Source: a virus
Length of the DNA stretch: 64,000 nucleotides
Direction: 5' to 3' (one strand)
IMG/VR virus record: IMGVR_UViG_3300027573_000964
The position numbers and the translations under genes were made by a program. Shown here piece by piece: positions 15,529-46,020 of this stretch (the stretch's first letter is position 1; the number at the start of each line of letters is the position of its first letter). Below the pieces are notes generated by a model. The model worked only from the letters and a program-made list of their open reading frames with translations. It was not told the origin of the DNA and did not search any database.

Positions 15529-15603
15529 TGGTGACCCCAAGGAGACTCGAACTCCTGTAGTTGCCGTGAAAGGGCAGTGTCCTAACCGCTAGACGATGGG
15601 GCC
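15529..15603 (-). tRNA. tRNA-Glu(UUC)
   Basis: RC: GGCCCCATCGTCTAGCGGTTAGGAC-ACTGC-CCTTTCACG-GCAAC...GGTTCGAGTCC...CCA; cloverleaf, CCA encoded. Confidence 0.9.
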
Positions 15604-16037
15604 TAATATTTGAACCATCCAACTAAATCACTTTTAATCTTTTTATAGTCTATTTCTTTTCTGCTTATTTTGGAACGAGCGTAATAAAAATCTCTATAAA
15701 ATTTATTTTCTGGCACTCGTGAATCTTTTTCATTACCAGGCATATCGTATCTATTTATATTACCGCAGCATAATTCGTATAAGCTTTGCCAGTATTCTTC
15801 GTGTTCAATTTGTGCTTGGCTTATTTTATATACACCGAATACTCTGTGTGTATATTTTTTATTTTCTATAAAGTAATCTTCATCATCAATGTAGAAGAAC
15901 CAATACTTTTGCCCAAGCCATTCGCACATACCATCTAATTCACCGTCATACCAGCCATCATACCAAAGCATTTTAAAGTCGATATTATTAGTTAGATTAG
16001 GGACATTTGCTAATAACTGTTTTGTTTCTTCGTGCAT
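15603..16037 (-). CDS. hypothetical protein
   Basis: 144 aa ORF; TAG stop abuts tRNA-Glu. Confidence 0.5.
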   Translation of the reverse strand: MHEETKQLLANVPNLTNNIDFKMLWYDGWYDGELDGMCEWLGQKYWFFYIDDEDYFIENKKYTHRVFGVYKISQAQIEHEEYWQSLYELCCGNINRYDMPGNEKDSRVPENKFYRDFYYARSKISRKEIDYKKIKSDLVGWFKY

Positions 16038-16258
16038 TCTTGTTCGTATAACCTTTGTCGTTCTTCTGGGCTTTTGTTCATCAGGTCAGTTATTTCAAAT
16101 CCGGCTCTGTGAAGCGCTATAATTATGTTATGTTCATTTAAATGGTTTTCACAAATATTCACTTCTAATCCAGTGGCTAATAGGCCACGGGAAAAAAGCA
16201 AGTCTCTTGTTATTTTACCACCACAGGGCGTTCCTAACACCCAAGAACAATCATTCAT
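16010..16258 (-). CDS. small conserved protein, paralog family A, copy 2
   Basis: 82 aa; CSWVLGTPCGGK...NICENHLNEH. Confidence 0.6.
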   Translation of the reverse strand: MNDCSWVLGTPCGGKITRDLLFSRGLLATGLEVNICENHLNEHNIIIALHRAGFEITDLMNKSPEERQRLYEQECTKKQNSY

Positions 16259-16523
16259 TATTTTCCAATTCTTCTAAATATGCTGTTGGGCTTTGGCCGG
16301 GCTCTAAATATACAATATTCTTAAAGCCGTTCTCTTCTGTAATAATCGATTCTTTTTCGGAGATAGCGCCAGTGTATTTCTTCCAGCCCTTCTTATGAAC
16401 GAACTCGCCGGTAGAAGGATTAATTGAACCCCATTCAACTCTCTCACGAGGCTCTATTGGCTCTACGCAATACACCTTGCCAGTCTTAAGCGACTGTATA
16501 TAAAATCGTCCCGTTTCACTCAT
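16251..16523 (-). CDS. hypothetical protein
   Basis: 90 aa ORF. Confidence 0.45.
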   Translation of the reverse strand: MSETGRFYIQSLKTGKVYCVEPIEPRERVEWGSINPSTGEFVHKKGWKKYTGAISEKESIITEENGFKNIVYLEPGQSPTAYLEELENNE

Positions 16524-16779
16524 TCTTTGCTCCCAGCGTATATTCTCTTAAAATCTCAAGAGTCCAATCTGGTCTTTCTTCTATAAAGCTTATCACCTTA
16601 TTTACGCTATATACAAAGTCAGTGTAGTCTAAACCAGCCGGCATATGAGACCTTGTAGAATAGGCATATCCAGTTAGTGCCGCGAGAAATCTTTTTGTTA
16701 GAATAACAGCGGTTTCTCGCTCTTTCTTCTCTTCTTCGCTCACAGTATTATCTACTGGTTTTGGAGGAGGTGTGGGCAT
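16516..16779 (-). CDS. hypothetical protein
   Basis: 87 aa ORF. Confidence 0.45.
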   Translation of the reverse strand: MPTPPPKPVDNTVSEEEKKERETAVILTKRFLAALTGYAYSTRSHMPAGLDYTDFVYSVNKVISFIEERPDWTLEILREYTLGAKNE

Positions 16780-16948
16780 TATTTTGTAGCTAATTCTTTC
16801 AGCGTTTTCTCGTGTTCAACAGTCCAGTTGGCAGGACTAGTCTCTTCTAATATTTTTAGAATGTTAAACTTGTCCTGCACTACTGATAACTCTAATCGAA
16901 CTTTTTGATACGCTAAATCAAATAATTCTCTATTAGTCATTTATTTGA

Positions 16949-17158
16949 TTAGACGGCTCTTACTTCTTTAGCCTCTAAGCCCTTCTTACCTTGGGCTGTC
17001 TCAAACTCTACGCGCTGGCCTTCCGCCAAACTGCGATGTCCATCACCTTGAATGCCAGTGAAATGAACGAAAACATCGTTTCCGCCTTCATCTGGGGTAA
17101 TGAACCCATAACCCTTATCATTATTAAACCACTTTACTATTCCTGTAACCATATTCAT
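16949..17158 (-). CDS. cspA: cold-shock protein, CspA family
   Basis: 69 aa; [15 protein letters not shown]...DVFVHFTGI...[10 protein letters not shown]...GKKGLEA typical CSD. Confidence 0.85.
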
Positions 17159-17203
17159 TTATTTCCTTTTATTACTAAACAACTATCCGTTGTTCTTGTT
17201 ATT

Positions 17204-17488
17204 CTATTTGGGGTCTTTCGACTTTTTCCAATTTTCTTCTGGACCAAACATTTCATTTACTAATTTCCAATTTACATTACAGCGTCTAGGATTATCCTTG
17301 GATGCTCTATATGCCGCACACTTGGTCATAAACTCTGGCCAAGATGGAACTGTGTGATCTATTTTAACACCATCGCCGAGTGTTGCCCATAATTCCTCGT
17401 CGTTTTCCCAACACATATTGTTGCCAGTCTGTTCGCGGTGTTTGCGAATAGCATCTTCTAACTGTTGTATTCGTTCTTTGTCTGTCAT
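17204..17488 (-). CDS. hypothetical protein
   Basis: 94 aa ORF. Confidence 0.45.
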   Translation of the reverse strand: MTDKERIQQLEDAIRKHREQTGNNMCWENDEELWATLGDGVKIDHTVPSWPEFMTKCAAYRASKDNPRRCNVNWKLVNEMFGPEENWKKSKDPK

Positions 17489-17634
17489 TTAGAGCTTCTA
17501 TTTATTAAGGGCTGCCAATCTTTTAAATTTTGCATATTTTCTCTTACAATCTTTTCTGTTAGATTAGCTACATCTTTTTTACCAGTTAGGGCCTCTTTAT
17601 ATATCATTTTAATTACAATGTTCATATTTCGTAT

Positions 17635-17710
17635 TGGAGCCTCTGATAGGAGTCGAACCTACAACCTCGACTTTACAAAAGTCTTGCTCTGCCAGTTGAG
17701 CTACAGAGGC
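17635..17710 (-). tRNA. tRNA-Thr(UGU)
   Basis: RC GCCTCTGTAGCTCAACTGGCAGAGC-AAGAC-TTTTGTAA-AGTCG...GGTTCGACTCC...CCA. Confidence 0.85.
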
Positions 17711-17711
17711 A

Positions 17712-17894
17712 TTAATCTTCTGCCACTATGTATGTTCCTGCTGTAACAACTTCGTCATATTCTTTGCATTTGCAATGAGCGCAGGGACGCTTTCTAAAAT
17801 CAAAATGATTATTAGGTCTATGTCCGCACTTACAGGCAAGTAAATCTAATTCAAGTGCTTCTTTACGGGTAAATTCAATAGTTATTTTTTTCAT
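17712..17894 (-). CDS. hypothetical zinc-binding protein
   Basis: 60 aa; CKCGH...CAHCKC. Confidence 0.4.
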   Translation of the reverse strand: MKKITIEFTRKEALELDLLACKCGHRPNNHFDFRKRPCAHCKCKEYDEVVTAGTYIVAED

Positions 17895-18184
17895 GGTATA
17901 TTATTATTTTCAATTAACCCAAGCGATAACAATTTTTGTCTTCCAGTATTCACATCACCATTTTCATAATTGTAGGTGCTATCCGTTAAACAACTGAATC
18001 CGTTTTGGTCCAACAGACTATCTATACCAAGCTCGTTATCTAGTAAATAGCCCTCACTATCAAAATATGACTTAGGAGTTATAGAGAAGAAATCACCGTC
18101 GCTGTATGGGTCTTGTGGATTGCCTGCGTGCATCTTAAAATAGTAATCTTTGGGCGATTCTGAAAAGTCTAAATCTTCTTCCAT
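17891..18184 (-). CDS. hypothetical acidic protein
   Basis: 97 aa ORF. Confidence 0.45.
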   Translation of the reverse strand: MEEDLDFSESPKDYYFKMHAGNPQDPYSDGDFFSITPKSYFDSEGYLLDNELGIDSLLDQNGFSCLTDSTYNYENGDVNTGRQKLLSLGLIENNNIP

Positions 18185-18205
18185 ATTGCTTATTCCTTTC
18201 TAATT

Positions 18206-18282
18206 TGGCGGGTGCGATCGGAGTTGAACCGACACCTCATTCCTCGACAGGGAATTGCTCTACGCGATTAAGCTACGCACCC
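18206..18282 (-). tRNA. tRNA-Asp(GUC)
   Basis: RC GGGTGCGTAGCTTAATCGCGTAGAGC-AATTCC-CTGTCGA-GGAAT...GGTTCAACTCC...GCCA. Confidence 0.85.
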
Positions 18283-18284
18283 AC

Positions 18285-18371
18285 TGGCGGAAGCAGAGAG
18301 ACTCGAACTCCCAAGCGCTTTTAGACGCCGCCTGCTTTCAAGGCAGGTTCCTCATCCAGCCGGATTACTTC
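18285..18371 (-). tRNA. tRNA-Ser(UGA), type II (long variable arm)
   Basis: 87 nt; acceptor GGAAGTA/TGCTTCC, anticodon arm CCTGC-CTTGAAA-GCAGG, long variable arm, T-loop TTCGAGT, CCA encoded. Confidence 0.75.
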
Positions 18372-18569
18372 CAATTCTTTCTCTGTAAGCCACCCATGTT
18401 CGTATATATTGTAGAAGTGTCTTTGGGCGGAAATATAATCTTTTGACATACTATTGCTTATAACTACTTGTGCAAATACTCCGCCAGTATTCTTACTTAC
18501 TACTAACTCGCGTATCTTCCAATCAAGACCTAAATGCATTATGTATGTTTCATATACGGTTCTATTCAT
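18321..18569 (-). CDS. hypothetical protein (3' end runs ~50 nt into tRNA-Ser gene)
   Basis: 82 aa ORF. Confidence 0.4.
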   Translation of the reverse strand: MNRTVYETYIMHLGLDWKIRELVVSKNTGGVFAQVVISNSMSKDYISAQRHFYNIYEHGWLTEKELEVIRLDEEPALKAGGV

Positions 18570-18831
18570 CCATTATATCTACTTCGACAACATAGTAATC
18601 TGTGCCGGTATAATCCATACTGATATGCTTGTCGTAAGGAGATATGAGCTGCTCTCTCGCCTCAAATACGCTCTTGCCCTCATCATCCACTTTTTCTTTC
18701 AATAGATGAGCCCATATCATTGCGTCGTCCGCGTGCTTTCTTGCGACGTCTTCGTTTCTATAGCCGCATACTGGCCACTCAGTTCTATCCGAATATTCGC
18801 CAGTTGTTCCAAATACTATATATACTTTCAT
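18562..18831 (-). CDS. hypothetical protein
   Basis: ORF 18562..18888 trimmed to internal Met MKVYIVFG; first 19 codons lie in tRNA-Ala gene. Confidence 0.5.
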   Translation of the reverse strand: MKVYIVFGTTGEYSDRTEWPVCGYRNEDVARKHADDAMIWAHLLKEKVDDEGKSVFEAREQLISPYDKHISMDYTGTDYYVVEVDIMDE

Positions 18832-18844
18832 TCTTTCTTTCGTT

Positions 18845-18920
18845 TGGTGGAGCTGATCGGGATCGAACCGACTACCTCCTGAATGCAAATCAGGCGCTCT
18901 CCCAGATGAGCTACAGCCCC
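18845..18920 (-). tRNA. tRNA-Ala(UGC)
   Basis: RC GGGGCTGTAGCTCATCTGGGAGAGC-GCCTGA-TTTGCAT-TCAGG...GGTTCGATCCC...CCACCA; G3:U70 Ala identity pair present. Confidence 0.9.
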
Positions 18921-18922
18921 AA

Positions 18923-19114
18923 CTATCGATTTGTTTTTAAGTAGTAAGGAATATCTAAGCCATAGCGAAGGCTTATAACAAATGATACTCCATCTTTACC
19001 GAGCATACAATTTTTAATACGCTCTACTCTATTTGAATTTAATCCACTCTTCTCATTAAAGTCAAGTCTTGGACGAAACATAAATCCATATACTGCTATC
19101 AAGTCTTTATTCAT
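18923..19114 (-). CDS. hypothetical small protein
   Basis: ORF 18923..19255 trimmed to internal Met (MNKDLIAVYG); upstream part spans tRNA-Val/tRNA-Gly. Confidence 0.4.
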   Translation of the reverse strand: MNKDLIAVYGFMFRPRLDFNEKSGLNSNRVERIKNCMLGKDGVSFVISLRYGLDIPYYLKTNR

Positions 19115-19122
19115 TTTCGCTT

Positions 19123-19197
19123 TGGTGGGACTAATAGGATTCGAACCTATGACTTCCTGCGTGTAAAGCAAGCACTCTACCGCTGAGTTATAGTCCC
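19123..19197 (-). tRNA. tRNA-Val(UAC)
   Basis: RC GGGACTATAACTCAGCGGTAGAGTG-CTTGC-TTTACAC-GCAGG...GGTTCGAATCC...CCACCA. Confidence 0.85.
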
Positions 19198-19203
19198 AAG
19201 AAT

Positions 19204-19281
19204 TGGTGCGGGATAAGGGATTCGAACCCTTACGTTCGACTTGGAAGGCCGACATGCTAAACCGTTAAACATCAACCCCGC
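19204..19281 (-). tRNA. tRNA-Gly(UCC)
   Basis: RC GCGGGGTTGATGT...-TCGGC-CTTCCAA-GTCGA...AAGGGTTCGAATCCCTT...CACCA; long D-loop. Confidence 0.8.
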
Positions 19282-19432
19282 ATTTATGATTTTCTTCATA
19301 ATGCTTTATCCATTTTCCCATAAATGAACAACGGAGTAGGTTGCATTACCTACAATCTCACTACAACTACAATAAAGATGGAAGTATTTCTTGCCATTTA
19401 TGTGTAGTTCTTCTATTTTATATTTCATCGTT

Positions 19433-19508
19433 TGGTGCGCGAAGTAGGAGTCGAACCTACAACATCTCGCTAATCGGGCGAGCGCTCTCCCAGTTGAGCT
19501 ATCCGCGC
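19433..19508 (-). tRNA. tRNA-Ile(GAU)-like; anticodon loop CCGAUUA (C33, U37 unusual)
   Basis: RC GCGCGGATAGCTCAACTGGGAGAGCG-CTCGC-CCGATTA-GCGAG...GGTTCGACTCC...GCACCA. Confidence 0.7.
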
Positions 19509-19739
19509 ATATATTCTTGGCTTAAGCCACTCAAATATAGGCTGACGGATTGCTGGGTGAGGTCTTGCCACTCCATTAATCCATCTATGCACTGTGGAAT
19601 TAGCTACTCCAAATTCATTGCCGATTTCTCTGTCAGTTATACCTAAATGCAAGCTGTATCTAATTATATCTCTAAAAACAATATCGTCAAGTATATTATT
19701 CAGTTCCAATGCATATATTATTCTAGCGAATTTTCCCAT
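19470..19739 (-). CDS. helix-turn-helix DNA-binding protein (3' end overlaps tRNA-Ile by ~39 nt)
   Basis: 89 aa; ITDREIGNEFGVANSTVHRWING = HTH. Confidence 0.5.
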   Translation of the reverse strand: MGKFARIIYALELNNILDDIVFRDIIRYSLHLGITDREIGNEFGVANSTVHRWINGVARPHPAIRQPIFEWLKPRIYARIAQLGERSPD

Positions 19740-20365
19740 AGTTCTTCGTTAGGCTTTCTTTCAGCAACTCGTTTAATCACTGCCCTAATCTCATTCCAGT
19801 TTTCACCAGTCGCTCTAATTACTTGCTCCGGGTGTTGTTCGACGAAACTTGCGTTATACTCATACGCCGGCATAATAACCATACCACGAGGACGCCAATG
19901 TAACCAGCGCTCGCAATATAACGGCCAATCGTCGATGAGTATCTTGCCATACATTAAACCCTTGTCTTCAGTAATCGTAACCGGCACATTAGGCAGATGT
20001 TCTCTACACCATTCCACTTTTTCTGTCCAAGCACCAGTAGTTTTATATGGCCCTTTAGTTAGAACATGTAGGTCAAAATTAAATTCTTTAAGTATCTCTA
20101 CAATTTTAAAACCAAGTTCAATCTTGGGTAATGTTCTCCAAAACCCAGGAACTCTTTTGATCATATCAACGGCAGGCTTATACTTATCCATGAACCATTC
20201 GCCGGTAGATTCTGGGCCAAACAACTCTGCCAGTTTATTCCTAACGGCACCTTCGTAATCACAAAGGGTCTGGTCCATATCTATAAGCGCTATATTCACT
20301 TGCTGTCTCTTCCAATTTGATAACCAACGTAACCAGAAACTAAAGCAACTAATGCTATAAAGCAA
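19718..20365 (-). CDS. HAD-superfamily phosphatase / 5'-nucleotidase-like
   Basis: 215 aa; IALIDMDQTLCDYEG = DxDxT motif I. Confidence 0.55.
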   Translation of the reverse strand: MLYSISCFSFWLRWLSNWKRQQVNIALIDMDQTLCDYEGAVRNKLAELFGPESTGEWFMDKYKPAVDMIKRVPGFWRTLPKIELGFKIVEILKEFNFDLHVLTKGPYKTTGAWTEKVEWCREHLPNVPVTITEDKGLMYGKILIDDWPLYCERWLHWRPRGMVIMPAYEYNASFVEQHPEQVIRATGENWNEIRAVIKRVAERKPNEELWENSLE

Positions 20366-20378
20366 ACTGCTACTAAAA

Positions 20379-20597
20379 TCATTTTATCTTCCATAAGTGA
20401 TAGGGCAAATATCTATCTATATAATATTGAATATCGTGGTATCTGTATGATTCTTCATACATTAATGAGTAGCCCTCATCATTATCCCACTCAATCTCTT
20501 CGTGTATGCCGGCGGCTGCGATATAAACTCTTAACTCTGATACCGGCACCTTTTTAGATAAGGCAAATTCATATACTTGTTTAATGTGTATGTTCAT
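20379..20597 (-). CDS. hypothetical protein
   Basis: 72 aa ORF. Confidence 0.45.
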   Translation of the reverse strand: MNIHIKQVYEFALSKKVPVSELRVYIAAAGIHEEIEWDNDEGYSLMYEESYRYHDIQYYIDRYLPYHLWKIK

Positions 20598-20601
20598 CGT
20601 A

Positions 20602-20680
20602 TGGTGGGCCAGGCTGGATTCGAACCAGCGACACCCCGCTCTTCAAACGGGTGCTCTACCTAAATCTGAGCTACCGACCC
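20602..20680 (-). tRNA. tRNA-Phe(GAA)
   Basis: RC GGGTCGGTAGCTCAGATTTAGGTAGAGC-ACCCGT-TTGAAGA-GCGGG...GGTTCGAATCC...CCACCA. Confidence 0.85.
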
Positions 20681-20697
20681 TCATTTGTTTTTCGATT

Positions 20698-20773
20698 TGG
20701 TGGGTCCTGTGGGAGTCGAACCCACGACCGTCAGATTAAAAGTCTGCTACTCTACCAGCTGAGTTAAAGACCC
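20698..20773 (-). tRNA. tRNA-Lys(UUU)
   Basis: RC GGGTCTTTAACTCAGCTGGTAGAGTA-GCAGA-CTTTTAA-TCTGA...GGTTCGACTCC...CCACCA. Confidence 0.85.
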
Positions 20774-20933
20774 AAATTGTTTATGAATTCTTGAAGATTT
20801 GTTTTCTTTGATACATTTTCAGTTAAATTAATATATGGTGAAATTCCATCTACATCATATACTATGCTCATCAAACGAGGTTGAACATGAAAATCTAATC
20901 TATAACTATATATATCGTGTATCCAATTTGGCA

Positions 20934-21281
20934 TTATTTTTTAACTCTACGACGAACCTTTTTGGTTTCGTTTTTAACATCTTTTTGTTTTGCTGCCCAT
21001 AATAAAAAGTTCTGTAGCGTAATTAGATGTTTAGCATTATAAGGCATTTTGGTTAAAGTTATGTGACGCATTTCTTTCGTCCAGCCTAATTGTCTTGCCT
21101 TATCAGTATATTCTAAAGCCACTTTACTTACATCATCTACAAGTTCGAGTTTCAAAGCACTTAAATATACCTGCTTAATTATTTCAAAAGCATCTTTCTC
21201 GTAATATGTAGCAAATTTAATATTCATATCATCGGCTCTGATATATCTTAACATGTCTTTGTCCATATGTATAAATGCCAT
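20934..21281 (-). CDS. hypothetical protein
   Basis: 115 aa ORF. Confidence 0.5.
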   Translation of the reverse strand: MAFIHMDKDMLRYIRADDMNIKFATYYEKDAFEIIKQVYLSALKLELVDDVSKVALEYTDKARQLGWTKEMRHITLTKMPYNAKHLITLQNFLLWAAKQKDVKNETKKVRRRVKK

Positions 21282-21294
21282 TTGTCTATTCGTT

Positions 21295-21372
21295 TGGTAG
21301 CGGAGGTTGGATTTTAACCAACGACCTCCTGGGTATGAACCAGGCGAGCTAAACGGGCTGCTCCACCCCGCT
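21295..21372 (-). tRNA. tRNA-Met(CAU) (elongator-type or Ile-lysidine type; A1:U72)
   Basis: RC AGCGGGGTGGAGCAGCCCGTTTAGCTCG-CCTGG-TTCATAC-CCAGG...GTTGGTTAAAATCCAAC...CTACCA. Confidence 0.8.
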
Positions 21373-21474
21373 ATATGTATTCTATCAGTAATCCATCTTC
21401 ACAAATTGTTAATATATATTTAGATAATGTTTTATCTATAAGATATGTCTTGTACAGCTCTCTTATTGTGATAT

Positions 21475-21747
21475 TCATTTTTTGTATGCAATTGAAAAGC
21501 GTATGGTTGAAATATCAAAGCCTCTTCGCTCCAACTCTTCTACAAATGTCGTTTCCCCGCCTCCGGTATCATACTTTACATAAGAGAAATAATGATTTAG
21601 AAGGTGGCCATCTACGCGTTGTTTCGGATGATAAAACATTACGTCTTTTTCTTTTTCTGACCAATATACCCTAAGTTTATTTTTGGGCTTTAATCTTTCT
21701 TTCATTATTTTACCAATATTCGTCGTAGTGTCCAGCAACATCCACAT
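21475..21747 (-). CDS. hypothetical protein
   Basis: 90 aa ORF. Confidence 0.45.
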   Translation of the reverse strand: MWMLLDTTTNIGKIMKERLKPKNKLRVYWSEKEKDVMFYHPKQRVDGHLLNHYFSYVKYDTGGGETTFVEELERRGFDISTIRFSIAYKK

Positions 21748-22066
21748 TTAACTTTTCTAAAGATATTTTTATCTTTCCATATACGGTAAATGTGTTAGGC
21801 TTCTTGCATCCTTCAACTCCGCCTCTGCTATCAAATCCGGCAGTAAGTTCCAAAAAGTCGATATCTTTGCAATCGTCTCGTTCTAAAGCGGTCAAAGTCG
21901 GACGCCCACCATATCTAAACCCACACAAGTAAAGTGTTTCGCCTTTATCTATCTTAATTTCCAGTTGATTGGTGTCGTAATCTCCACCATATCCGCCTGC
22001 TTTAATGCTCTTAATGCCTTTGATTTTAGATAGGCGTTGTATCATTTTGTTAGTTTGCCAGTGCAT
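21710..22066 (-). CDS. hypothetical protein
   Basis: ORF 21710..22141 (GTG-initiated in track) trimmed to internal ATG; upstream codons are the tRNA-like gene. Confidence 0.45.
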   Translation of the reverse strand: MHWQTNKMIQRLSKIKGIKSIKAGGYGGDYDTNQLEIKIDKGETLYLCGFRYGGRPTLTALERDDCKDIDFLELTAGFDSRGGVEGCKKPNTFTVYGKIKISLEKLNVDVAGHYDEYW

Positions 22067-22078
22067 TATCTTCCTATT

Positions 22079-22165
22079 TGGCGCACGAGGAATGGGTTCG
22101 AACCATCGGCCTCTCAATAGACTTTTACCTCTATCGAGCACTCTACCGGCTGAGCTACATCGTGC
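22079..22165 (-). tRNA. atypical tRNA-like gene (87 nt): canonical acceptor/D/T arms but 9-bp anticodon stem with 8-nt loop GGUAAAAG
   Basis: RC GCACGATG-TA-GCTC-AGCCGGTA-GAGT-G-CTCGATAGA-GGTAAAAG-TCTATTGAG-AGGCC-GATGG-TTCGAAC-CCATT-CCTCGTGC-G-CCA; sequence confirmed against overlapping ORF translations. Confidence 0.5.
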
Positions 22166-22176
22166 ATATTTTCGAT

Positions 22177-22251
22177 TGGTCTGGGTGGAGAATTTTGAAA
22201 TCTCGACCTCCTGTTCCCAAAACAGGCGCGCTGCCTCTGCGCCACACCCAG
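22177..22251 (-). tRNA. tRNA-Pro(UGG)
   Basis: RC CTGGGTGTGGCGCAGAGGCAGCGCG-CCTGT-TTTGGGA-ACAGG...TTCAAAA...CACCCAGACCA. Confidence 0.8.
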
Positions 22252-22695
22252 TTATATTACAGACAGTATATCTTTATACCATCCCATTTGTTTTATCGTT
22301 TTTAACCTGTGGCACATTAGACATCTAATTTCGCATTTATCTATTTCTAATTGTATCTTTTCTATACCACATCCGCTTCTGCTTAAATCGCTAACATGCC
22401 TTTCTTTATTATTTGTGTGGTCAAAATCTAAAAATATTGGGTTGTTTTCACCACAATCTACACATGGATGGCTACTAAGATATTCCCATACATATGCTGA
22501 GTTTCGTTTGACCCGTCCCTTGTGGGCCGCGACTTTAAGCTTTTTGGTTTTAGCATCAAGTTTCTTATAATGTGCCTTATCGTACTTACTGGCACAACTT
22601 CTACACCAAGGACTGAGCAAACCTGTTTTGCTGTTTCTAACACTGAAACAATTTGTATCCTTATCTGAATTACATTTGTTGCAATGTTTTAACAT
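22252..22695 (-). CDS. HNH homing endonuclease
   Basis: 147 aa; CVDCGENNPIFLDFDHTNN...CLMCHR HNH motif; sits inside tRNA cluster. Confidence 0.7.
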   Translation of the reverse strand: MLKHCNKCNSDKDTNCFSVRNSKTGLLSPWCRSCASKYDKAHYKKLDAKTKKLKVAAHKGRVKRNSAYVWEYLSSHPCVDCGENNPIFLDFDHTNNKERHVSDLSRSGCGIEKIQLEIDKCEIRCLMCHRLKTIKQMGWYKDILSVI

Positions 22696-22696
22696 A

Positions 22697-23005
22697 TTAC
22701 CTTGGAGGATGCAATAGATATAGCGCCTTTTGAGTTTCTCTTATCGCTTCCTGATATTCTTCTATTTTTGCTAATGCTTGTTGCTCTTCTGCTATATACA
22801 TCGAACCATGGTTTGTCAAGATTAAATGACGTTTTCCAGTAACATCTTCCATGACATAACCTTCACTGTCGCATTCCCAAGCGTGCCAATAGACCTTAAA
22901 CTCAAATATCTTCCTTAACTCGGTTGTTATTTGAGGCCCATCGCCATCTTTCCAGGTACAATCATATCTGTCACCATCTCTATAGGATATGCTTACATTG
23001 TTCAT
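22697..23005 (-). CDS. hypothetical protein
   Basis: 102 aa ORF. Confidence 0.5.
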   Translation of the reverse strand: MNNVSISYRDGDRYDCTWKDGDGPQITTELRKIFEFKVYWHAWECDSEGYVMEDVTGKRHLILTNHGSMYIAEEQQALAKIEEYQEAIRETQKALYLLHPPR

Positions 23006-23265
23006 TGCTTCATCCGTTGCGTAAGGGTTGTGAATTTTCCCTCTTTAACACCATCAAAAAATCTTTTAGTAAGTGCTGTGCTTTTAGCTTTTGGCATATA
23101 CATGGTGCCATGCTCATTAAGTATTAATACTTCATCAGGATTAAATATCCAATCCGGATCAGCTATTGAAACACCATCATCATAGAACCAGAACATCCAC
23201 TTGTATAAATCTATCATAGCTGGATGCATTATACTTTCCAATTTTCCGGTCCGACGCTCCACCAA
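23002..23265 (-). CDS. hypothetical protein
   Basis: 87 aa ORF. Confidence 0.45.
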   Translation of the reverse strand: MVERRTGKLESIMHPAMIDLYKWMFWFYDDGVSIADPDWIFNPDEVLILNEHGTMYMPKAKSTALTKRFFDGVKEGKFTTLTQRMKQ

Positions 23266-23423
23266 ATATCATTACATATAGTGCAGGTGAATTTATAGTC
23301 TTGAATTTTACCCTGTAATGCCTCCCAAACCTGATATACTACGCTTTTCTTACTGCACTTCAAGCAATAGTTGCCTACTTTTTCAGCAGGTTTAAGTGTT
23401 CCATCGTCTTCAATAAGGGGCAT
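23229..23423 (-). CDS. hypothetical zinc-ribbon protein
   Basis: 64 aa; CLKCSKK...CTIC. Confidence 0.4.
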   Translation of the reverse strand: MPLIEDDGTLKPAEKVGNYCLKCSKKSVVYQVWEALQGKIQDYKFTCTICNDIWWSVGPENWKV

Positions 23424-23436
23424 TAGTTTCCTCGAT

Positions 23437-23529
23437 TGGCGGAAGGCAAGAGATTCGAACTCTCATCCCCTTTTACGGGGAACTGGTTTAGCAAACCAGC
23501 GCAGCAAACCAGGTATCTGCCTACCTTCC
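23437..23529 (-). tRNA. tRNA-Ser(GCU), type II
   Basis: 93 nt; acceptor GGAAGGT/GCCTTCC, anticodon arm CTGGT-TTGCTAA-ACCAG, variable arm CCCC-GTAAAA-GGGG, T-loop TTCGAAT, CCA. Confidence 0.8.
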
Positions 23530-23532
23530 AGT

Positions 23533-23609
23533 TGGCGGGAGCATAAGGATTCGAACCCTAACTATTCGTTTTGGAGACGAACGTGCTGACCGTTAAACAC
23601 TATACTCCC
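23533..23609 (-). tRNA. tRNA-Trp(CCA)
   Basis: RC GGGAGTATAGTGTTTAACGGTCAGCACG-TTCGT-CTCCAAA-ACGAA...GGGTTCGAATCC...GCCA. Confidence 0.85.
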
Positions 23610-24177: not shown

Positions 24178-24367
24178 TGGAAGCTCGTTCTACTATTCCG
24201 TTTTTTATGTGCAGATTAATTCTATCTAATCTATAATCCATAGTTAGTATATAGCTACTGCCTTCGTAACTACTTACTCTTGGAACAAAACCAAGAACCT
24301 TTATGGCATATCTTGCCAGCCTCATATCAAGGCCTACTATTTGTTGGGCCAATTCTTTTGCTATCAT
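24170..24367 (-). CDS. peptidase inhibitor I78-like small protein, copy 1
   Basis: 65 aa; TMDYRLDRINLHIKNGIVERASIG resembles I78 domain (...DYRxDRLN...G.V.R..xG). Confidence 0.45.
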   Translation of the reverse strand: MIAKELAQQIVGLDMRLARYAIKVLGFVPRVSSYEGSSYILTMDYRLDRINLHIKNGIVERASIG

Positions 24368-25290
24368 ATATAAAGAGCCTTATCAGTTCGTTGTATTAAT
24401 TCGCATATCTCTTTGCCGCGTCGATTTAACTTTTTCCACTTTGACTTAAAGCCGTCAGAATCAATACCGCCAAACATTGTAGCATTGCTATGAAGCTCGG
24501 CTAAACCAACAATCAACAAAGTAGCGGCCTCTTTACGAGCAGCAAACTCTGGCACTTGCTCTGGCTTAATAGTATGAATATCCATATCCATTCTAATGAG
24601 CTTGCCAATTTGTTCATTGCCATCTAACGTCATCCAGGTTTGGTATGAAGTTTCGGCGTGGTGAAGAAAATGTTGCTTACCATCTTCATCTACAGTCAAA
24701 CAAAATGGCTTACCGCAGTCGTGGAATATTGTATATTTTTCAATATAGTATTCATCTAATAGGTGCTTTAATATAAGGTCTTTATACTCAAAGAACCAAT
24801 TGGGTAATTGCCAATCGAATTTGGGCTTATCGCCTTTCAATATACCAAGCAAATCAAATGTGTAGTCTCTAACGGATACACCATGGTCAAAGATAGTCTG
24901 TCCTTTGGTCTGAAAACAGGACGACATCTTCTTAACCAATTCTCTTGTTCGCTTTTCTTTATCGCAGGCAGCAGAGTTCTTATTTGCGTCGATTCTATAC
25001 GGATGTAATGCTACTGGAAAATTACCCTTGCAGAACTGTGTTGCTGCCTCGCTGGGCAACAAAGCAAGGGAAGTTAGGGCATTACCTATATCCGGCTCTC
25101 TAAACTCAATGTGGGCGATTTTAGAGGCCCTTAAAGCCTTCGCCGTATTGAATAGGTCTTTCTCTGTTGGCACTGATAACAAAACTATAGTATTGGAGTC
25201 TTTGTGCCACTGTCTCGTTTCTTCTGGGTATTGCATTAATAAGTCTGCTACTGCATGTGCGGACTGAACCGCCTGATAACCTACAGACAA
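24364..25290 (-). CDS. PTH2-like peptidyl-tRNA hydrolase domain fused to C-terminal domain of unknown function
   Basis: 308 aa; N-terminus GYQAVQSAHAVADLL...TIVLLSVPTEKDL...ALTSLALLP aligns with PTH2 GKxAAQxSHA...KVVLKV...IAPGS..VLGIGP. Confidence 0.55.
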   Translation of the reverse strand: MSVGYQAVQSAHAVADLLMQYPEETRQWHKDSNTIVLLSVPTEKDLFNTAKALRASKIAHIEFREPDIGNALTSLALLPSEAATQFCKGNFPVALHPYRIDANKNSAACDKEKRTRELVKKMSSCFQTKGQTIFDHGVSVRDYTFDLLGILKGDKPKFDWQLPNWFFEYKDLILKHLLDEYYIEKYTIFHDCGKPFCLTVDEDGKQHFLHHAETSYQTWMTLDGNEQIGKLIRMDMDIHTIKPEQVPEFAARKEAATLLIVGLAELHSNATMFGGIDSDGFKSKWKKLNRRGKEICELIQRTDKALYI

Positions 25291-27592: not shown

Positions 27593-27918
27593 TCTTCACC
27601 CGACCTGTTTCTTTGTAAATTTTGCATGTTCAGCTCAAACTCTATTAAAGGCATAAATATTACATGCTTTTCTACCCAGTCATTCAATTTAAGCTGAAAT
27701 TCTTTATAGTCTATCTTGAATCTATGAGCATGAGTAGTATCATATAGGTGGTTAGTCAGAGCACTTTTAGCAGCACCGAGACCATTCCACACATACTTAT
27801 TACTTCTGGTTTTAACTCGCTGACCATCTACTAAGATAATATAGGCAACTTTTTTGCTTTGAGGGATATTGAAGCTAAATGAGCTTTGAAGCAAGACGTC
27901 TAATTCATTAGGAGTCAT
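27589..27918 (-). CDS. hypothetical protein
   Basis: 109 aa ORF. Confidence 0.5.
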   Translation of the reverse strand: MTPNELDVLLQSSFSFNIPQSKKVAYIILVDGQRVKTRSNKYVWNGLGAAKSALTNHLYDTTHAHRFKIDYKEFQLKLNDWVEKHVIFMPLIEFELNMQNLQRNRSGEE

Positions 27919-28703
27919 ACGTTATCCACACCAAACACACTGCTTAAGTGTGAAAATCTGACATACTTTTCTTTTAGTTCGTCAGTTAATAATTTATTCT
28001 GCATTTCTGGATAATATTCATTGTGCAGTTTGGCACGTCTTTCATTTGCTAATTTGTCAGCCAAGTAAGAATAACTTGCAAATACTTTCTTGCGATCTAA
28101 ATGTGAGTTATATAATTCGTCTTCACGAATCATTGCATCGACTCTACTACGGATATTAGCCATTACAGAAGAGTATTCTTCTGCCTTTTGTTTTAGACTT
28201 TCTCTTTCGTCAAATAGAGCCTTTAATTTGGGACACTCATTTATGTCTAATTTAAGTCCAGCGTGGAAACCATTACCATGTCCAGACGCGCCACCATTAA
28301 TATCCATGCCCCTCATAATTGGGCCGCCGTCGCGAGCCTCATAACCAAAATTATGTCCGCTAGTTAAAGGGTCATAACTAACATCCTTACCATCCAATGA
28401 CGAGCCCTTTACACTAAATATTATAAGATTTTTTTCTATTCTTGGAGTACGTTCCATACTAATAGAAATTTTCTTCTTATGAAATCTTTTATAAAATCTC
28501 TCTATCATGGAAGGTATATCATCTATGCTGGATAAATTGAGTCTAAACCAATCAGCTTGTTTCTTTAGTTTATCTTGATATGCTTTAGATTTCTTTTTTC
28601 TTTGCTGCTTCTTATAACAAGCACTAATACATTTAGCAGCTTTCTTTTCATCAGCAAAAACTGCTTCACAATGTTCGCATTGGTAGGCATATACTCGAAT
28701 CAT
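27915..28703 (-). CDS. hypothetical protein with N-terminal zinc ribbon
   Basis: 262 aa; CEHCE...CISAC. Confidence 0.5.
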   Translation of the reverse strand: MIRVYAYQCEHCEAVFADEKKAAKCISACYKKQQRKKKSKAYQDKLKKQADWFRLNLSSIDDIPSMIERFYKRFHKKKISISMERTPRIEKNLIIFSVKGSSLDGKDVSYDPLTSGHNFGYEARDGGPIMRGMDINGGASGHGNGFHAGLKLDINECPKLKALFDERESLKQKAEEYSSVMANIRSRVDAMIREDELYNSHLDRKKVFASYSYLADKLANERRAKLHNEYYPEMQNKLLTDELKEKYVRFSHLSSVFGVDNV

Positions 28704-28845: not shown

Positions 28846-29220
28846 TCATCTATCCAGTAGTGGAGAAGTTATTATACAATTAGCCGAACTTTCATTACAA
28901 GCTATAGGAATGTTATATACGGCAGCTATTCTAATTAATGCTTTAACATCTACGTCGTGTGGATGGGGATATAACGGATCCCAGAAGAATATAACACAGT
29001 TAATTTCACCCTCGGCTATCTTTGCTCCGGCTTGTTGGTCACCACCTAACGGACCACTTTTAAGCAGTATTACTTGTAATTCTGGATTTCGGTGTTGTAT
29101 CAGTTTGCCTGTAGTGAGAGTAGCATATAGTTTATGCTTAAGTAATATACTTAGATTTGTCTCTACCCACTTCATCATGTCTGGTTTTTTGTTGTCGTGG
29201 GCAATTAGGACTATATTCAT
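28846..29220 (-). CDS. mgsA: methylglyoxal synthase
   Basis: 124 aa; IVLIAHDNKK...LYATLTTGKLI...LKSGPLGGDQQAGAKIAEGEINCVIFFWDPLYPHPHDVDVKALIRIAAVYNIPIA aligns with bacterial MgsA along full length. Confidence 0.85.
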   Translation of the reverse strand: MNIVLIAHDNKKPDMMKWVETNLSILLKHKLYATLTTGKLIQHRNPELQVILLKSGPLGGDQQAGAKIAEGEINCVIFFWDPLYPHPHDVDVKALIRIAAVYNIPIACNESSANCIITSPLLDR

Positions 29221-33587: not shown

Positions 33588-33663
33588 TGGGGTGACCAAT
33601 GGAATTCGAATCCATGTTACCCGAGTCACAGTCGGGAGTCCTAACCGCTAGACGATGGCCACC
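33588..33663 (-). tRNA. tRNA-His(GUG) with genomically encoded G-1 and C73
   Basis: RC G-GTGGCCA-TC-GTCTAGCGGTTAGGAC-T-CCCGA-CTGTGAC-TCGGG...ATGGATTCGAATTCCAT-TGGTCAC-C-CCA; extra 5' G pairs with discriminator C. Confidence 0.85.
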
Positions 33664-33668
33664 ATAAT

Positions 33669-34022
33669 TTATTTTTTGAAACTTACATTTGGATTATTGG
33701 GAGTAAGTATAAGTTTATAAAGCCTATCTACATGTTTAGTATTCTCACCATTTATCTTATCCCAATAAGAAGGAATATCATTAAAGTTTTCACCTCTTGA
33801 CCATGGATAAACATATTTTAAGTAATACTTCATTTCTGATCCTTTGCAGTAATCCTTGCAATAACCAGTTTCTTTTATTTCGAATCGTCGGCGCCCTAAA
33901 TTACTTTCATATAGATAATAATAAATAACTTCATCTTTTTTTATATCAGTCCATTGCACTACGGCTTCTTTTGTCGCAACCAAGCGCCAATCTTCTCTTG
34001 GCTTTTTCTTAAACCAATTCAT
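33669..34022 (-). CDS. hypothetical protein, paralog family B, copy 2
   Basis: 117 aa. Confidence 0.5.
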   Translation of the reverse strand: MNWFKKKPREDWRLVATKEAVVQWTDIKKDEVIYYYLYESNLGRRRFEIKETGYCKDYCKGSEMKYYLKYVYPWSRGENFNDIPSYWDKINGENTKHVDRLYKLILTPNNPNVSFKK

Positions 34023-34615
34023 TCTGTTACAATCCCAAATGCTCTTAATTCGTCTTGCGATACGCCATCTATTGCTAAATTAAATAATTCAGTGGCCTCT
34101 TCTAAAGTAAGATTTCTTTTGGCCATATCGAAGTCATCATTACCACAGCACCATATATAATAAGTTCCGTCTTGTTGCATCTTATTATCAAGGTATTTGT
34201 AGGTCTTAAATACTCCAATTACAAAATGAGGAGCGCCATCTTTAACCCAATCGCCATACCAGCTTTCTTTTGGCGCGCACTCAACTAACTTACAAAGCAC
34301 TGCTCTGTTGGCAAATCCATTATAATATTCTTGTAAGGATGAATCGCCTCGATTGTCAGTAAGCTCACGTTTGCTTTTTTCTACAACATAGTGTAGCTTT
34401 TCTACAGCCTTTTGTATCCACTCTTTGCGCTGCTCTGTAGTGTGAATATCTTTCTCCCAAGCATTATAGTATGCATAAAGGGCATTACAAGATACCTCCA
34501 GAGTATAATATCCCTCTTTAAATCTGGGCTTGAACTCAAAAGTACATATACTTTTTATGTTATTGGGATGTTGCTCTTCCCATATTTTTATATTGGATTT
34601 TGAATCTTTTCTCAT
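34019..34615 (-). CDS. hypothetical protein
   Basis: ORF 34019..34651 trimmed to second Met (MRKDSKSN); first 12 codons overlap tRNA-Ser. Confidence 0.5.
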   Translation of the reverse strand: MRKDSKSNIKIWEEQHPNNIKSICTFEFKPRFKEGYYTLEVSCNALYAYYNAWEKDIHTTEQRKEWIQKAVEKLHYVVEKSKRELTDNRGDSSLQEYYNGFANRAVLCKLVECAPKESWYGDWVKDGAPHFVIGVFKTYKYLDNKMQQDGTYYIWCCGNDDFDMAKRNLTLEEATELFNLAIDGVSQDELRAFGIVTE

Positions 34616-34621
34616 GACGAT

Positions 34622-34713
34622 TGGCGGAAGGCAAGGGAATCGAACCCTCAATGCCCTTTTGAGGCATACTCGCTTTCCAGGCGAGCGCCACCTACCTATA
34701 TGACAAACCTTCC
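34622..34713 (-). tRNA. tRNA-Ser(GGA), type II
   Basis: 92 nt; acceptor GGAAGGT/GCCTTCC; anticodon arm CTCGC-CTGGAAA-GCGAG; variable arm ATGCC-TCAAAAG-GGCAT; T-loop TTCGATT; CCA. Confidence 0.8.
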
Positions 34714-35358: not shown

Positions 35359-35544
35359 TTATGGAATAACTATATTATGGGAGAATTCGCAATACTTACC
35401 ACCTGCATACGTATCTCTGAACCACACTTCATATATATGATATGGGTGATATATATGTGGAGGAATGCGCGTAACCTTTAGTTCTTTAAATTGTTTCCCC
35501 TTAAAGAATGAAAGATATATGCTATTCAATACATGATTAGCCAT
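35359..35544 (-). CDS. hypothetical protein
   Basis: 61 aa ORF. Confidence 0.4.
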   Translation of the reverse strand: MANHVLNSIYLSFFKGKQFKELKVTRIPPHIYHPYHIYEVWFRDTYAGGKYCEFSHNIVIP

Positions 35545-35974
35545 TAGTTACTACCTCATTAGCCCACTTCAGTATTTTCTGGATACGCTCACGCGCCAGT
35601 TCCATAGCTTCTTCGTAATTAACCCAACGATATTCGTAGTGTTCAGCCTTACCTATTTCTGGATTGAATGGGAGCTCAATTTCTTTTCGAGTAGTTTCGG
35701 CTATGTAATAAGTTGCTACCTTACCCTTGCCATAAGGTTCGGTCTCTCTACTTACCTTGCCCCATTTGAAGTTTAATTCGGCGGGTTTAATAGTCGTTTC
35801 TTCTTCAACTTCACGCAGAGCGGCTTGCATCTTTGTCTCGCCATCTTCTGCTTTTCCCTTTGGAAAATCCCAATAGTCATCATCGGCGCGCAATAAAAGA
35901 AACTTATATTCGCCTTTCTCTAATCTGACTGGAATAACGCCGGCCGATATTATATGCTTGCTCACCTTACTCAT
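35537..35974 (-). CDS. Nudix hydrolase
   Basis: ORF 35537..36112 trimmed to internal Met MSKVSK to remove overlap; Nudix box GKAEDGETKMQAALREVEEETTI. Confidence 0.8.
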   Translation of the reverse strand: MSKVSKHIISAGVIPVRLEKGEYKFLLLRADDDYWDFPKGKAEDGETKMQAALREVEEETTIKPAELNFKWGKVSRETEPYGKGKVATYYIAETTRKEIELPFNPEIGKAEHYEYRWVNYEEAMELARERIQKILKWANEVVTNG

Positions 35975-36239
35975 AATCTCTCCAGCAGTATTCATCACCT
36001 TCGGCAACAACTTCGTTAGTAGTTTTACGTGTGCCGTCTTCAAGCTCCACTCGACATAGTGTTGAAATATGGTGAGTTGGTGCGTGGCGGGTAATTTCCC
36101 TAGTACAAACAAGAACTTGTTTAACTTTCTTACAAATGACCGGCCTCGTGTATTGATAAATTAGCATTCCAATAAGGGTCGATAAGCTAACAAAGATAAT
36201 AGCTAAAAGAACCTTAATTTCATTTGGCGTTTCTTTCAT
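35967..36239 (-). CDS. hypothetical membrane protein
   Basis: 90 aa; TM helix VLLAIIFVSLSTLIGMLIY. Confidence 0.45.
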   Translation of the reverse strand: MKETPNEIKVLLAIIFVSLSTLIGMLIYQYTRPVICKKVKQVLVCTREITRHAPTHHISTLCRVELEDGTRKTTNEVVAEGDEYCWRDYE

Positions 36240-36427: not shown

Positions 36428-36707
36428 GATTGGATCCTATTTTTACATATAATTCTTCTGGTGAATAACCAGGATACGAAGTTCCTGTGGTATGAAATTG
36501 TTCTGCTTTAATATGACATTCTGGACAAAGCGATATGCCATTTTCTTTAACATATCCACCATTAGGCATCAGCGTTCTATCTGTTATATGATGTGCGTCT
36601 AACTTATCAAGTTCTTCATTCCAACCACACATTTTACATTTGTGCCCATCGCGTTTGAATACTTCACTACGGAAGTTTGCCCTGACTAATTTCTTCTTTT
36701 CGGACAC
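36393..36707 (-). CDS. HNH endonuclease
   Basis: 104 aa; CKMCGW...DAHHI...NGISLCPECH. Confidence 0.75.
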   Translation of the reverse strand: MSEKKKLVRANFRSEVFKRDGHKCKMCGWNEELDKLDAHHITDRTLMPNGGYVKENGISLCPECHIKAEQFHTTGTSYPGYSPEELYVKIGSNHGLAVSKSERL

Positions 36708-37188
36708 TCAATACCTCTATTGCTCTTTTAGCATGACGCCGCGCAATGCCTTCTGAAAAGTTAGTCTGAACTAAGAACGGCATTAAATGATCCATATCAT
36801 CACAGTCATCAATGATAACAAAACTCTCTATTTCGATGTCAGGATTTTCATTCATCCACTCTTGAATTTCACCACCACGCCCATAAGTTCCTGGTTGTTG
36901 ATGATTGGGCGTTATGCCTATAATCTCTCCAACCACACCACGAAAATGTAGATAGTCAGCAAGATAAGAATAATTTTCAAATAAAGTTCGCCACATACTT
37001 GATATAACTATTTTGGCGCCAGTCTTTAATATAACTTCGTTGAGGTTAGCGACGCACTCGACATCGAACTCTGGATATAGCTCATTGGGATTTATGGAGC
37101 CTGGCAATCTGACGCCCTTATGGTATATCTCTGTTTGGGTAATGACGTTGTTCAACACGCCATCAATATCTAGAAATAAGATTTTCAT
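36667..37188 (-). CDS. HAD-superfamily hydrolase (paralog 1)
   Basis: 173 aa; MKILFLDIDGVLNN motif I; VIIDDCDD motif. Confidence 0.6.
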   Translation of the reverse strand: MKILFLDIDGVLNNVITQTEIYHKGVRLPGSINPNELYPEFDVECVANLNEVILKTGAKIVISSMWRTLFENYSYLADYLHFRGVVGEIIGITPNHQQPGTYGRGGEIQEWMNENPDIEIESFVIIDDCDDMDHLMPFLVQTNFSEGIARRHAKRAIEVLSVRKEEISQGKLP

Positions 37189-37589
37189 TTTAACAACTGA
37201 CCGGCCAAAAAGCCTATACCAGTAAAGACATCAACTTGAGAGGCTTTGAAGGGAAACTCTATACTTATACCCTGTATATTATTAACAAATATCCTCATGA
37301 ACAAGTCTTTTTCCTCAAATTCCCAAATCCAATTTTTGTGACTTCCGGTCCAACAATAAGTTTGCTTGCCTAATTTTTCTTTAAAAAATTTTACCAAGTC
37401 TTTCACGCCACGTTTATGTATGTCGTCAGAAAGTTTCATATAGTGGTAGGCATATCTCTTTCGATATGTGTGATCTTTTAGTAAATTAATTGCTGGAGTG
37501 GTGGGTCTATGATTTAGTGAATCTTCAACTTTCATTTTAACATCTCTATAGCAACATTTACATGATGGTCTTCTAATCCATTTTGCCAA
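37185..37589 (-). CDS. hypothetical protein
   Basis: 134 aa ORF. Confidence 0.5.
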   Translation of the reverse strand: MAKWIRRPSCKCCYRDVKMKVEDSLNHRPTTPAINLLKDHTYRKRYAYHYMKLSDDIHKRGVKDLVKFFKEKLGKQTYCWTGSHKNWIWEFEEKDLFMRIFVNNIQGISIEFPFKASQVDVFTGIGFLAGQLLK

Positions 37590-38023
37590 CTCGTCTTAAT
37601 TAAAAGCGGCGAAAGATGAAGCATATCACTGTCATCATCCAGGATAACAAAGCTCTCTACCTCGCCGACAGGCTGCTCTGACAACCATTCTTGTATCTCT
37701 AATCCACGACCATATGTCATTTCACCACGGATATAAGACTTAGCAAATCTTGGCGTCTTGCCAATAATTTCACCAGTCACACCTTCGGAATGTAAATACT
37801 TAGCGAGTAATTCTACATCATCAAATAATATACGCCAGCTACTAGATATGACCATCTTGGCACCAGTAGCATTAGTAATCTTATTTAAACGAGCAACACA
37901 ATCTGGGTCTAACTTACTTACACCATATAGATTAGCGGTAAATCCTTCGGGCTGAACTCGGGGATTAGAAACACTTTTAATGGTATTAATAACGCCATCA
38001 ATATCTAAAAAGATTATCTTCAT
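37532..38023 (-). CDS. HAD-superfamily hydrolase (paralog 2)
   Basis: 163 aa; MKIIFLDIDGVINT; VILDDDSD; close paralog of 36667..37188. Confidence 0.6.
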   Translation of the reverse strand: MKIIFLDIDGVINTIKSVSNPRVQPEGFTANLYGVSKLDPDCVARLNKITNATGAKMVISSSWRILFDDVELLAKYLHSEGVTGEIIGKTPRFAKSYIRGEMTYGRGLEIQEWLSEQPVGEVESFVILDDDSDMLHLSPLLIKTSWQNGLEDHHVNVAIEMLK

Positions 38024-43230: not shown

Positions 43231-43235
43231 TCGAA

Positions 43236-43784: not shown

Positions 43785-43797
43785 GTTACTCTCGATT

Positions 43798-46012: not shown

Positions 46013-46020
46013 AAATACTC

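Follow-up and report, generated by a model that had tools for sequence, protein, structure and literature searches.

A predicted minimal methylglyoxal synthase with an altered phosphate loop in the genome of a huge phage

The window analysed here is a 64-kb stretch of viral DNA (64,000 nucleotides; IMG/VR virus record IMGVR_UViG_3300027573_000964), in which every real-looking ORF of at least 100 aa lies on the minus strand and the coding density is 95%. Among these ORFs is one for a methylglyoxal synthase (MGS) of the MgsA type, which begins where the stop codon of the preceding gene ends (Table 1). The ATGA overlap of the MGS stop codon with the start of the downstream ORF suggests co-translation in one long gene array. 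The 121-aa protein encoded upstream is 78% identical to the protein at the same position in a related contig, L001, and its conservation is above that of most neighbours; it had no match in Pfam, PHROG or PADLOC, and its single-sequence AlphaFold2 (AF2) model was unusable (pLDDT 39.6). A PHROGs scan of MGS and nine neighbours returned no family for MGS and was uninformative for the neighbours, a PADLOC scan of MGS and its neighbours gave no match, and a permissive Pfam scan of seven neighbours yielded nothing credible. The promoter scan stayed at background, with 24 found and 22.4 expected.

Table 1. Positions of the MGS locus, its active-site codons and the accessory gene sets within the 64-kb window.
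Feature	Position	Strand	Remarks
MGS (MgsA-type) CDS	28846..29220	-	124 aa; ATG start, TGA stop; ORF list
Upstream neighbour, 121 aa	29221..29586	-	TAG stop directly abuts the MGS ATG (...GAGATAG/ATG)
Downstream neighbour, 49 aa	28700..28849	-	ATG overlaps the MGS TGA stop (ATGA); sequence GATAGATGATG
262-aa protein	27915..28703	-	Syntenic with MGS in L001, 42% identity
H8-D9-N10-K11-K12 codons	29185..29199	-	E. coli H19, D20, K23 (catalytic and phosphate-binding by alignment); invariant
T34-L35-T36-T37 codons, phosphate loop	29110..29121	-	E. coli T45-G46-T47-T48, Gly46 to Leu; direct sequence reading; Leu35 codon CTC at 29116..29118
S55-G56-P-L-G-G-D61 codons	29038..29058	-	E. coli S65, G66 and catalytic base D71 by alignment; invariant in 121 sequences and 80/80 IMG/VR copies
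D81 to D91 codons (W-D-P-L-Y-P-H-P-H88-D-V-D91)	28948..28980	-	E. coli D91, P92, H98, D101; catalytic positions invariant
RlaP nucleotidyltransferase	4705-5760	-
Thg1	6616-7413	-
Protein with Gad2 Pfam match	7654-8394	-
RNA ligase-family gene	8779-9438	-	First of three
RNA ligase-family gene	44313-45440	-	T4 Rnl1-like
RNA ligase-family gene	46021-47148	-	Rnl2-like
NAD+ synthesis/salvage cluster	54403-60527	-	About 25 kb from MGS
Isochorismatase/PncA-like gene	54403-55050	-	NAD+ cluster
Glutamine-dependent NAD synthetase-like gene	55256-57256	-	NAD+ cluster
Band_7 protein	57268-58176	-	NAD+ cluster
NAPRTase-family gene	58186-59625	-	NAD+ cluster
NADAR-domain protein	60060-60527	-	NAD+ cluster
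Acb5-family Pfam match	~61050-61292

Eighteen tRNA genes were found in the window with ARAGORN and 19 with Rfam. Among the PHROG and Pfam matches are an ATP-dependent DNA ligase, T4-type RNA ligases 1 and 2, Thg1, RlaP-type nucleotidyltransferases and an NAD+ synthesis/salvage set, and Pfam also matched NADAR, Gad2 and Acb5. The best GenBank homologues of one window protein (24364..25290) are encoded in a 634,780-bp ‘uncultured phage’ record and in jumbo phages of Tenacibaculum, Ralstonia, Xanthomonas, Pectobacterium and Cronobacter. Furthermore, a 468,446-bp ENA contig (ERZ27267619, k141_116371) is 100% identical to the window over 10,375 bp, a 170,947-bp JGI contig is 99.98% identical to it, and one Logan contig is identical. 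No capsid, terminase, tail or other structural phage gene was found inside the window, and a megablast of 20 kb of it against GenBank phages gave no match. Judged by its genome architecture, accessory genes and relatives, the carrier is a huge phage of ~470 kb; the view of the earlier note that MGS is phage-encoded is thus upheld by the one-strand arrays, the tRNAs, the PHROG matches, the jumbo-phage homologues and the length of the ENA contig.

Several other features of this genome were observed. The tRNA genes lie among small ORFs at 15529-23609, 33588-34713 and 43152-48369 (minus strand), with Rfam extras at 22083-22164 and 18288-18372, and MGS is placed between two tRNA-rich stretches. One tRNA (43798-43872, minus strand) has a CTA anticodon of the amber-suppressor type and is labelled Pyl by ARAGORN. 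The TAG recoding hinted at by this tRNA was rejected for the window, where TAG ends 23 of 138 ORFs and the density under the standard code is 95%; recoding might occur elsewhere in the genome, for example in late genes. A large set for RNA/tRNA repair and maturation occupies 4705-9438 and 44313-47148, and an IF1-like protein (Pfam eIF-1a) and a cold-shock domain protein are encoded at 13860-14084 and 16949-17158 (all minus strand). The NAD+ set and the Acb5 match resemble phage NAD+-reconstitution and counter-defence gene sets, and an NMNAT-like gene lies just past the window end (in L009). Two paralogous HAD_SAK_2-domain proteins (36667-37188 and 37532-38023, minus strand) stand on either side of a 134-aa ORF and are followed by an HNH gene and a NUDIX hydrolase (35537-36112), an arrangement that is kept in L001; HAD_SAK_2 homologues also occur near MGS in the IMG/VR locus L023. 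The sole sizeable non-coding gap of the window is a segment of 435 nt (42376-42810) with neither a coding-strand ORF of at least 50 aa nor an Rfam match.

The lack of a capsid, terminase or tail gene in the 64 kb, together with several GenBank ‘phage’ MGS records that are possibly host-derived, would fit a bacterial mgsA brought in by misassembly or host contamination, or a carrier that is a plasmid or cellular genome. We regard this as highly improbable, since four assemblies made independently (one from JGI, one from ENA and two from Logan) show the same MGS junctions, the MGS ORF adjoins or overlaps its phage neighbours at its start and stop codons, the GC content of the gene (0.379) equals that of the phage (window, 0.386), and synteny extends to a diverged relative. 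This relative, L001, is a 7.5-kb contig from another sample; it is colinear with the window and has MGS in the matching slot at 75% amino acid identity, among neighbouring proteins of 42-88% identity. Moreover, the cellular MGS closest to the window protein is only 67% identical, and a GTDB scan revealed no close donor, its best matches (64% identity at most) coming from many phyla, including archaea.

Other relatives carry the gene as well. In L003 and L004, which have other genes in common with the window, MGS is ~62% identical and lies at a different position. Five short MGS forms fell into one group in NJ trees with moderate bootstrap support (129/200), and both truncations and a bulky residue in place of Gly46 (E. 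coli numbering) are common to all five. A metagenome-contig scan with the phage-clade alignment retrieved mostly cellular MGS; new among the matches listed was a 1.2-kb contig of P0001. Pairwise dN/dS ranged from 0.03 to 0.17, with synonymous sites at or near saturation. The abutting and overlapping ORFs, the phage-like GC content, the synteny with L001, the presence in relatives and the low dN/dS together indicate that MGS is a long-resident phage gene under purifying selection, and not contamination or a recent pick-up. A metabolic gene of cellular type, it has a central position in a 64-kb phage array whose genes share one strand and is retained in related phages, and we class it as a phage auxiliary metabolic gene (AMG).

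MGS converts the glycolytic intermediate dihydroxyacetone phosphate (DHAP) into methylglyoxal, a toxic electrophile, and free phosphate. The 124-aa ORF had been described as aligning with MgsA over essentially its entire length, and this holds: the ORF coordinates are exact, and both NCBIfam equivalogs for MgsA (EC 4.2.3.3) matched the full-length protein above their cut-offs, NF003559 over residues 1-122 (183.6 bits, cut-off 84) and TIGR00160 over residues 2-121 (160.8 bits, cut-off 146.9). The Pfam search that the earlier note had proposed as a check found the MGS family PF02142 (E 1.4e-15). A PDB search matched the window protein with 11 distinct solved MGS sequences at 43-63% identity; the best was 1vmd of Thermotoga maritima (E 1.9e-44, 63% identity), and others were 6phe (E 8.4e-37) and E. 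coli 1b93 (E 5.7e-36). Scores of this size lie well outside what chance would give and solidly identify the predicted product as a full-length MgsA.

The MGS-like fold PF02142 is common to carbamoyl-phosphate synthetase (CPS, CarB) and PurH, of which the ORF could in principle encode a domain fragment. An AF2 monomer of the window protein built on a 12-sequence alignment (pLDDT 89.4, pTM 0.84) showed the alpha/beta fold of MGS in a PDB structure search: the 26 best matches were all MGS (TM 0.81-0.87, 43-63% identity), with MGS reaching TM 0.85-0.87, whereas the MGS-like domains of CPS reached TM 0.69 at most with 14-19% identity and PurH 0.50 at most. A Pfam scan of the protein gave no CPSase or AICARFT match, and the ORF stands alone with its own start and stop. 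The equivalog scores, the residue alignment and the structure matches thus refute a CarB or PurH fragment, the chance of which we consider negligible, and agree with the original identification of a true MGS.

For the residue comparison, the window protein was aligned with E. coli MgsA and the best 120 database homologues (121 sequences compared). The window protein has equivalents of E. coli H19, D20, K23, T45, T47, T48, S65, G66, D71, D91, P92, H98, D101 and R107, and all of these except T47 and P92 are invariant among the aligned sequences; the equivalent of V111 is also kept, as seen in the PDB search alignment. The catalytic residues in E. coli numbering, which we take from the literature of Saadat & Harrison and Marks et al. 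to be Asp71 (base), His98, Asp101, Asp91, His19 and Asp20, correspond to D61, H88, D91, D81, H8 and D9 of the window protein, each invariant in the 121 sequences. The catalytic Asp and His residues, whose absence on careful alignment would have spoken against MGS, are therefore all there. PDB entries 1s89 and 1s8a carry mutations of His98. The phosphate-binding set consists of K12, T34, T36, T37, S55 and G56 (E. coli Lys23, Thr45, Thr47, Thr48, Ser65 and Gly66). Among the motifs reported earlier, H8-D9-N-K-K12, G59-G60-D61-Q-Q-A-G-A, W80-D81-P-L and P87-H88-D89-V-D91-V-K-A-L-I-R97 could be read in the protein, but ‘GTTG’ could not, this segment being L35-T-T-G. By this alignment the active site is intact, and the enzyme is probably catalytically competent.

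By the same comparison, Leu35 is the sole departure near the predicted active site. It occupies the position of E. coli Gly46, which is not itself listed as a phosphate ligand. In the cellular homologues this column holds Gly in 111 of 116 sequences, Glu in four and Ala in one, with Leu in none, whereas the five-member phage clade has L, L, Q, F and F; across the 80 IMG/VR copies examined, a bulky residue here was confined to the lineage of the window. Three of the five clade members also have Ser or Asn for Thr47. A phosphate loop altered in this way throughout a clade that is monophyletic in the NJ trees (129/200) might reflect an MGS fold with a changed function, acting on another phosphorylated substrate or as a phosphate- or ligand-binding regulator. 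However, the catalytic residues are invariant under strong purifying selection, so that loss of MGS-type catalysis is not expected; cellular MgsA homologues tolerate Glu or Ala at position 46 and Ser at 47, IMG/VR group 1 carries T47N with Gly46 intact, and the TIGR00160 cut-off is passed. A changed function is therefore improbable.

The window protein is shorter than typical bacterial MGS (124 aa against 144-160 aa), lacking ~11 N-terminal and ~21-25 C-terminal residues. The ENA and Logan assembly gene calls place its start still later, at Met15, which gives a product of 110 aa (L011, 9526-9858; L012, 4472-4804). A start at Met15 would delete the H-D-x-x-K motif (H-D-N-K-K). We favour Met1, since P0002 and P0049 show conservation of MNIVLIAHDNKK, P0029 opens with MIK but retains NIVLIAHDNKK thereafter, and the ATG abuts the upstream stop. 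MGS records truncated at Met15 could hide catalytic residues in database copies.

At its C-terminus, the protein ends three residues past the position aligned with E. coli residue 131, and the helix that bears Arg150 is missing. In the tail of E. coli MgsA, Arg150 forms an inter-subunit salt bridge that transmits cooperative inhibition by phosphate (PMC4133812). The MGS of Thermus, which naturally has no tail, is hexameric and active but shows a Hill coefficient of 1.5, compared with 3.4 for E. coli, and an Arg-bearing tail raised the Thermus value to 1.99 (PMC4133812). A second allosteric route has been proposed through P92, R107 and V111 (PMC4133812), and these residues are kept in the window protein. 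The Arg150 tail does not define MGS as a whole, since the Thermus and Bacillus enzymes lack it. By analogy with the tail-less Thermus precedent, the missing Arg150 tail and the Leu at Gly46 suggest that phosphate may inhibit the phage enzyme with less cooperativity than it does E. coli MgsA.

The earlier note had called MGS an unusual AMG. This is true for cultured and curated phages: there is no MGS family in PHROGs, and a BFVD search gave no convincing structure match (best TM 0.53 at 17% identity). A tblastn search of GenBank phages found 22 records without annotation, none of them above 56% identity. These GenBank ‘phage’ MGS records were excluded from the evidence, several being multi-contig Listeria or Enterococcus deposits that may contain host DNA. 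The description does not hold for IMG/VR: a scan with the single window protein detected no relatives there, but an alignment-based scan found at least 212 contigs that encode an MGS relative, and many of these contigs measure 160-545 kb. Nor does it fit three virome AMG lists. One records mgsA among viral AMGs, on a 120-kb Cr30-like scaffold from Lake Baikal (PMC8066274), and the gene appears in two further lists (bioRxiv 10.1101/2024.01.25.577265; PMC12397222); in all three it was annotated automatically, under propanoate or ‘methane’ metabolism, without analysis. Our literature search found no paper joining ‘methylglyoxal synthase’ with ‘phage-encoded’.

The 80 IMG/VR loci retrieved fall into several sequence groups, and the catalytic residues are kept in 80/80. 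Several of the loci lie in tRNA islands, with 30 tRNAs in 16 kb around MGS in L023, 12 in L069 and seven in L049, and others adjoin strong PHROG matches, for example to a helicase (E 2.8e-98), a DNA transfer protein (E 6.5e-148) and CobS/T-like proteins. Each viral group is closer to some cellular MGS than to the window clade, and the window clade itself is 67% identical to its best cellular MGS compared with 48-62% to the other viral groups. This suggests several independent acquisitions.

The genes around MGS were also compared. Neither in the window nor in the 80 viral loci did MGS have a glyoxalase or another gene for handling methylglyoxal nearby, and all-against-all ORF clustering of 83 MGS loci yielded no conserved partner common to the different MGS groups. 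In some loci MGS was linked with RNA ligases, but this was confined mainly to one MGS group and was read as a shared accessory-region location. Linkage of MGS with NAD+ genes was not found in the other viral loci. As neither a glyoxalase nor a conserved partner gene was found, the genomic context does not discriminate between roles of MGS.

We consider it most probable (about 0.8) that the gene encodes a minimal, catalytically competent MGS (EC 4.2.3.3) and is a stand-alone AMG of the ~470-kb phage, likely serving as a triose-phosphate overflow valve. MGS would be transcribed within the long one-directional array of small phage genes, and in the infected cell the enzyme would convert host dihydroxyacetone phosphate into methylglyoxal and inorganic phosphate, opening a methylglyoxal bypass of lower glycolysis. 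In the classical view, the MGS bypass of lower glycolysis releases phosphate when sugar phosphates pile up (PMC4133812, introduction). The most likely benefit to the phage would be an overflow valve that makes phosphate locked up in sugar phosphates available to meet a very large need for nucleotides; for a phage that has to make ~470 kb of DNA for each particle, release of phosphate and drainage of triose phosphates appear to offer the most economical explanation. Since methylglyoxal is toxic to DNA and proteins, the phosphate benefit would have to outweigh the damage to phage replication. The methylglyoxal formed would presumably be disposed of by host glyoxalases, as the phage MGS had no detoxification gene in its vicinity.

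An active enzyme might also be made for its product, with methylglyoxal as a toxin for host arrest or host takeover. Methylglyoxal is known to be toxic and to be connected with K+ handling, and the compound could stop host growth and macromolecular synthesis, cause glutathione-adduct-gated K+ efflux and acidification, or exclude competitors. An enzyme under less restraint would fit the missing Arg150 tail and the altered phosphate loop, MGS has no gene for detoxification beside it, and it is found among small early-type genes without assigned function. However, tail-less MGS is a normal housekeeping enzyme in Thermus and Bacillus, and the DNA and proteins of the phage would be damaged by methylglyoxal too. 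We therefore consider a toxin unlikely and favour the overflow valve.

A more pointed proposal is that the phage MGS, tail-less and with a remodelled phosphate loop, has been deliberately deregulated for host takeover or counter-defence and not for housekeeping, which we regard as quite doubtful. In one speculative version, the enzyme would open a route from DHAP through methylglyoxal and D-lactate to pyruvate that is independent of NAD+, Pi and ADP and releases phosphate. A bypass needing no NAD+, Pi or ADP could matter when NAD+-depleting abortive-infection systems stall GAPDH, since carbon and phosphate would continue to flow. The NAD+ synthesis/salvage cluster and other counter-defence-type genes of the same phage lie ~25 kb away. 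In the other version, methylglyoxal itself would arrest the host. If deregulation were true, the repeated independent capture of MGS by big-phage lineages would amount to a general, unrecognised infection strategy.

MGS is a control point of central metabolism at which ATP yield is traded for phosphate release and a toxic electrophile is made. An intact copy under selection in this phage, and relatives on at least 212 viral contigs that stem from several independent acquisitions, suggest that rerouting of triose phosphates is useful to large phages. Our result is incremental, as the family is a well-known one and automated AMG lists already include viral mgsA. By its sequence, the protein adds one more member to a known family of enzymes that turns up repeatedly in large phages. 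Modest interest comes from the Gly46 change, which is specific to its lineage and goes together with a missing regulatory tail, and from the fact that big phages have captured MGS more than once. At 124 aa, the gene is an easily cloned candidate for probing how phages use the methylglyoxal bypass, whether for phosphate supply, host arrest or counter-defence.

Compared with E. coli MgsA (P0A731; PDB 1B93, 1EGH and 1IK4), the phage protein has the same predicted fold and the same catalytic and phosphate-binding residues, at 52-53% identity over E. coli residues 13-131. In contrast to the E. coli enzyme, it is encoded by a phage and not a chromosome, lacks the first ~11 and last ~21 residues including Arg150, and has Leu for Gly46. 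The MGS proteins of Thermus (PDB 1WO8, 2X8W and 2XW6), Bacillus subtilis (6F2C) and Borrelia (8U2V) are likewise compact and tail-less, at about 125-135 aa, with target-normalised TM values of 0.79-0.84 but identities of only 43-50%; as far as the alignments show, these short enzymes keep the canonical Gly46, whereas the phage enzyme has Leu. The B. subtilis MgsA is regulated by Crh. The closest solved relative, TM1185 of Thermotoga maritima (PDB 1VMD; 63% identity), is a cellular enzyme with N- and C-terminal extensions (178-aa construct). The MGS copies in IMG/VR belong to the same family and reside on large viral contigs, several of them in tRNA-rich accessory regions, and the lineage of the window forms a separate clade.
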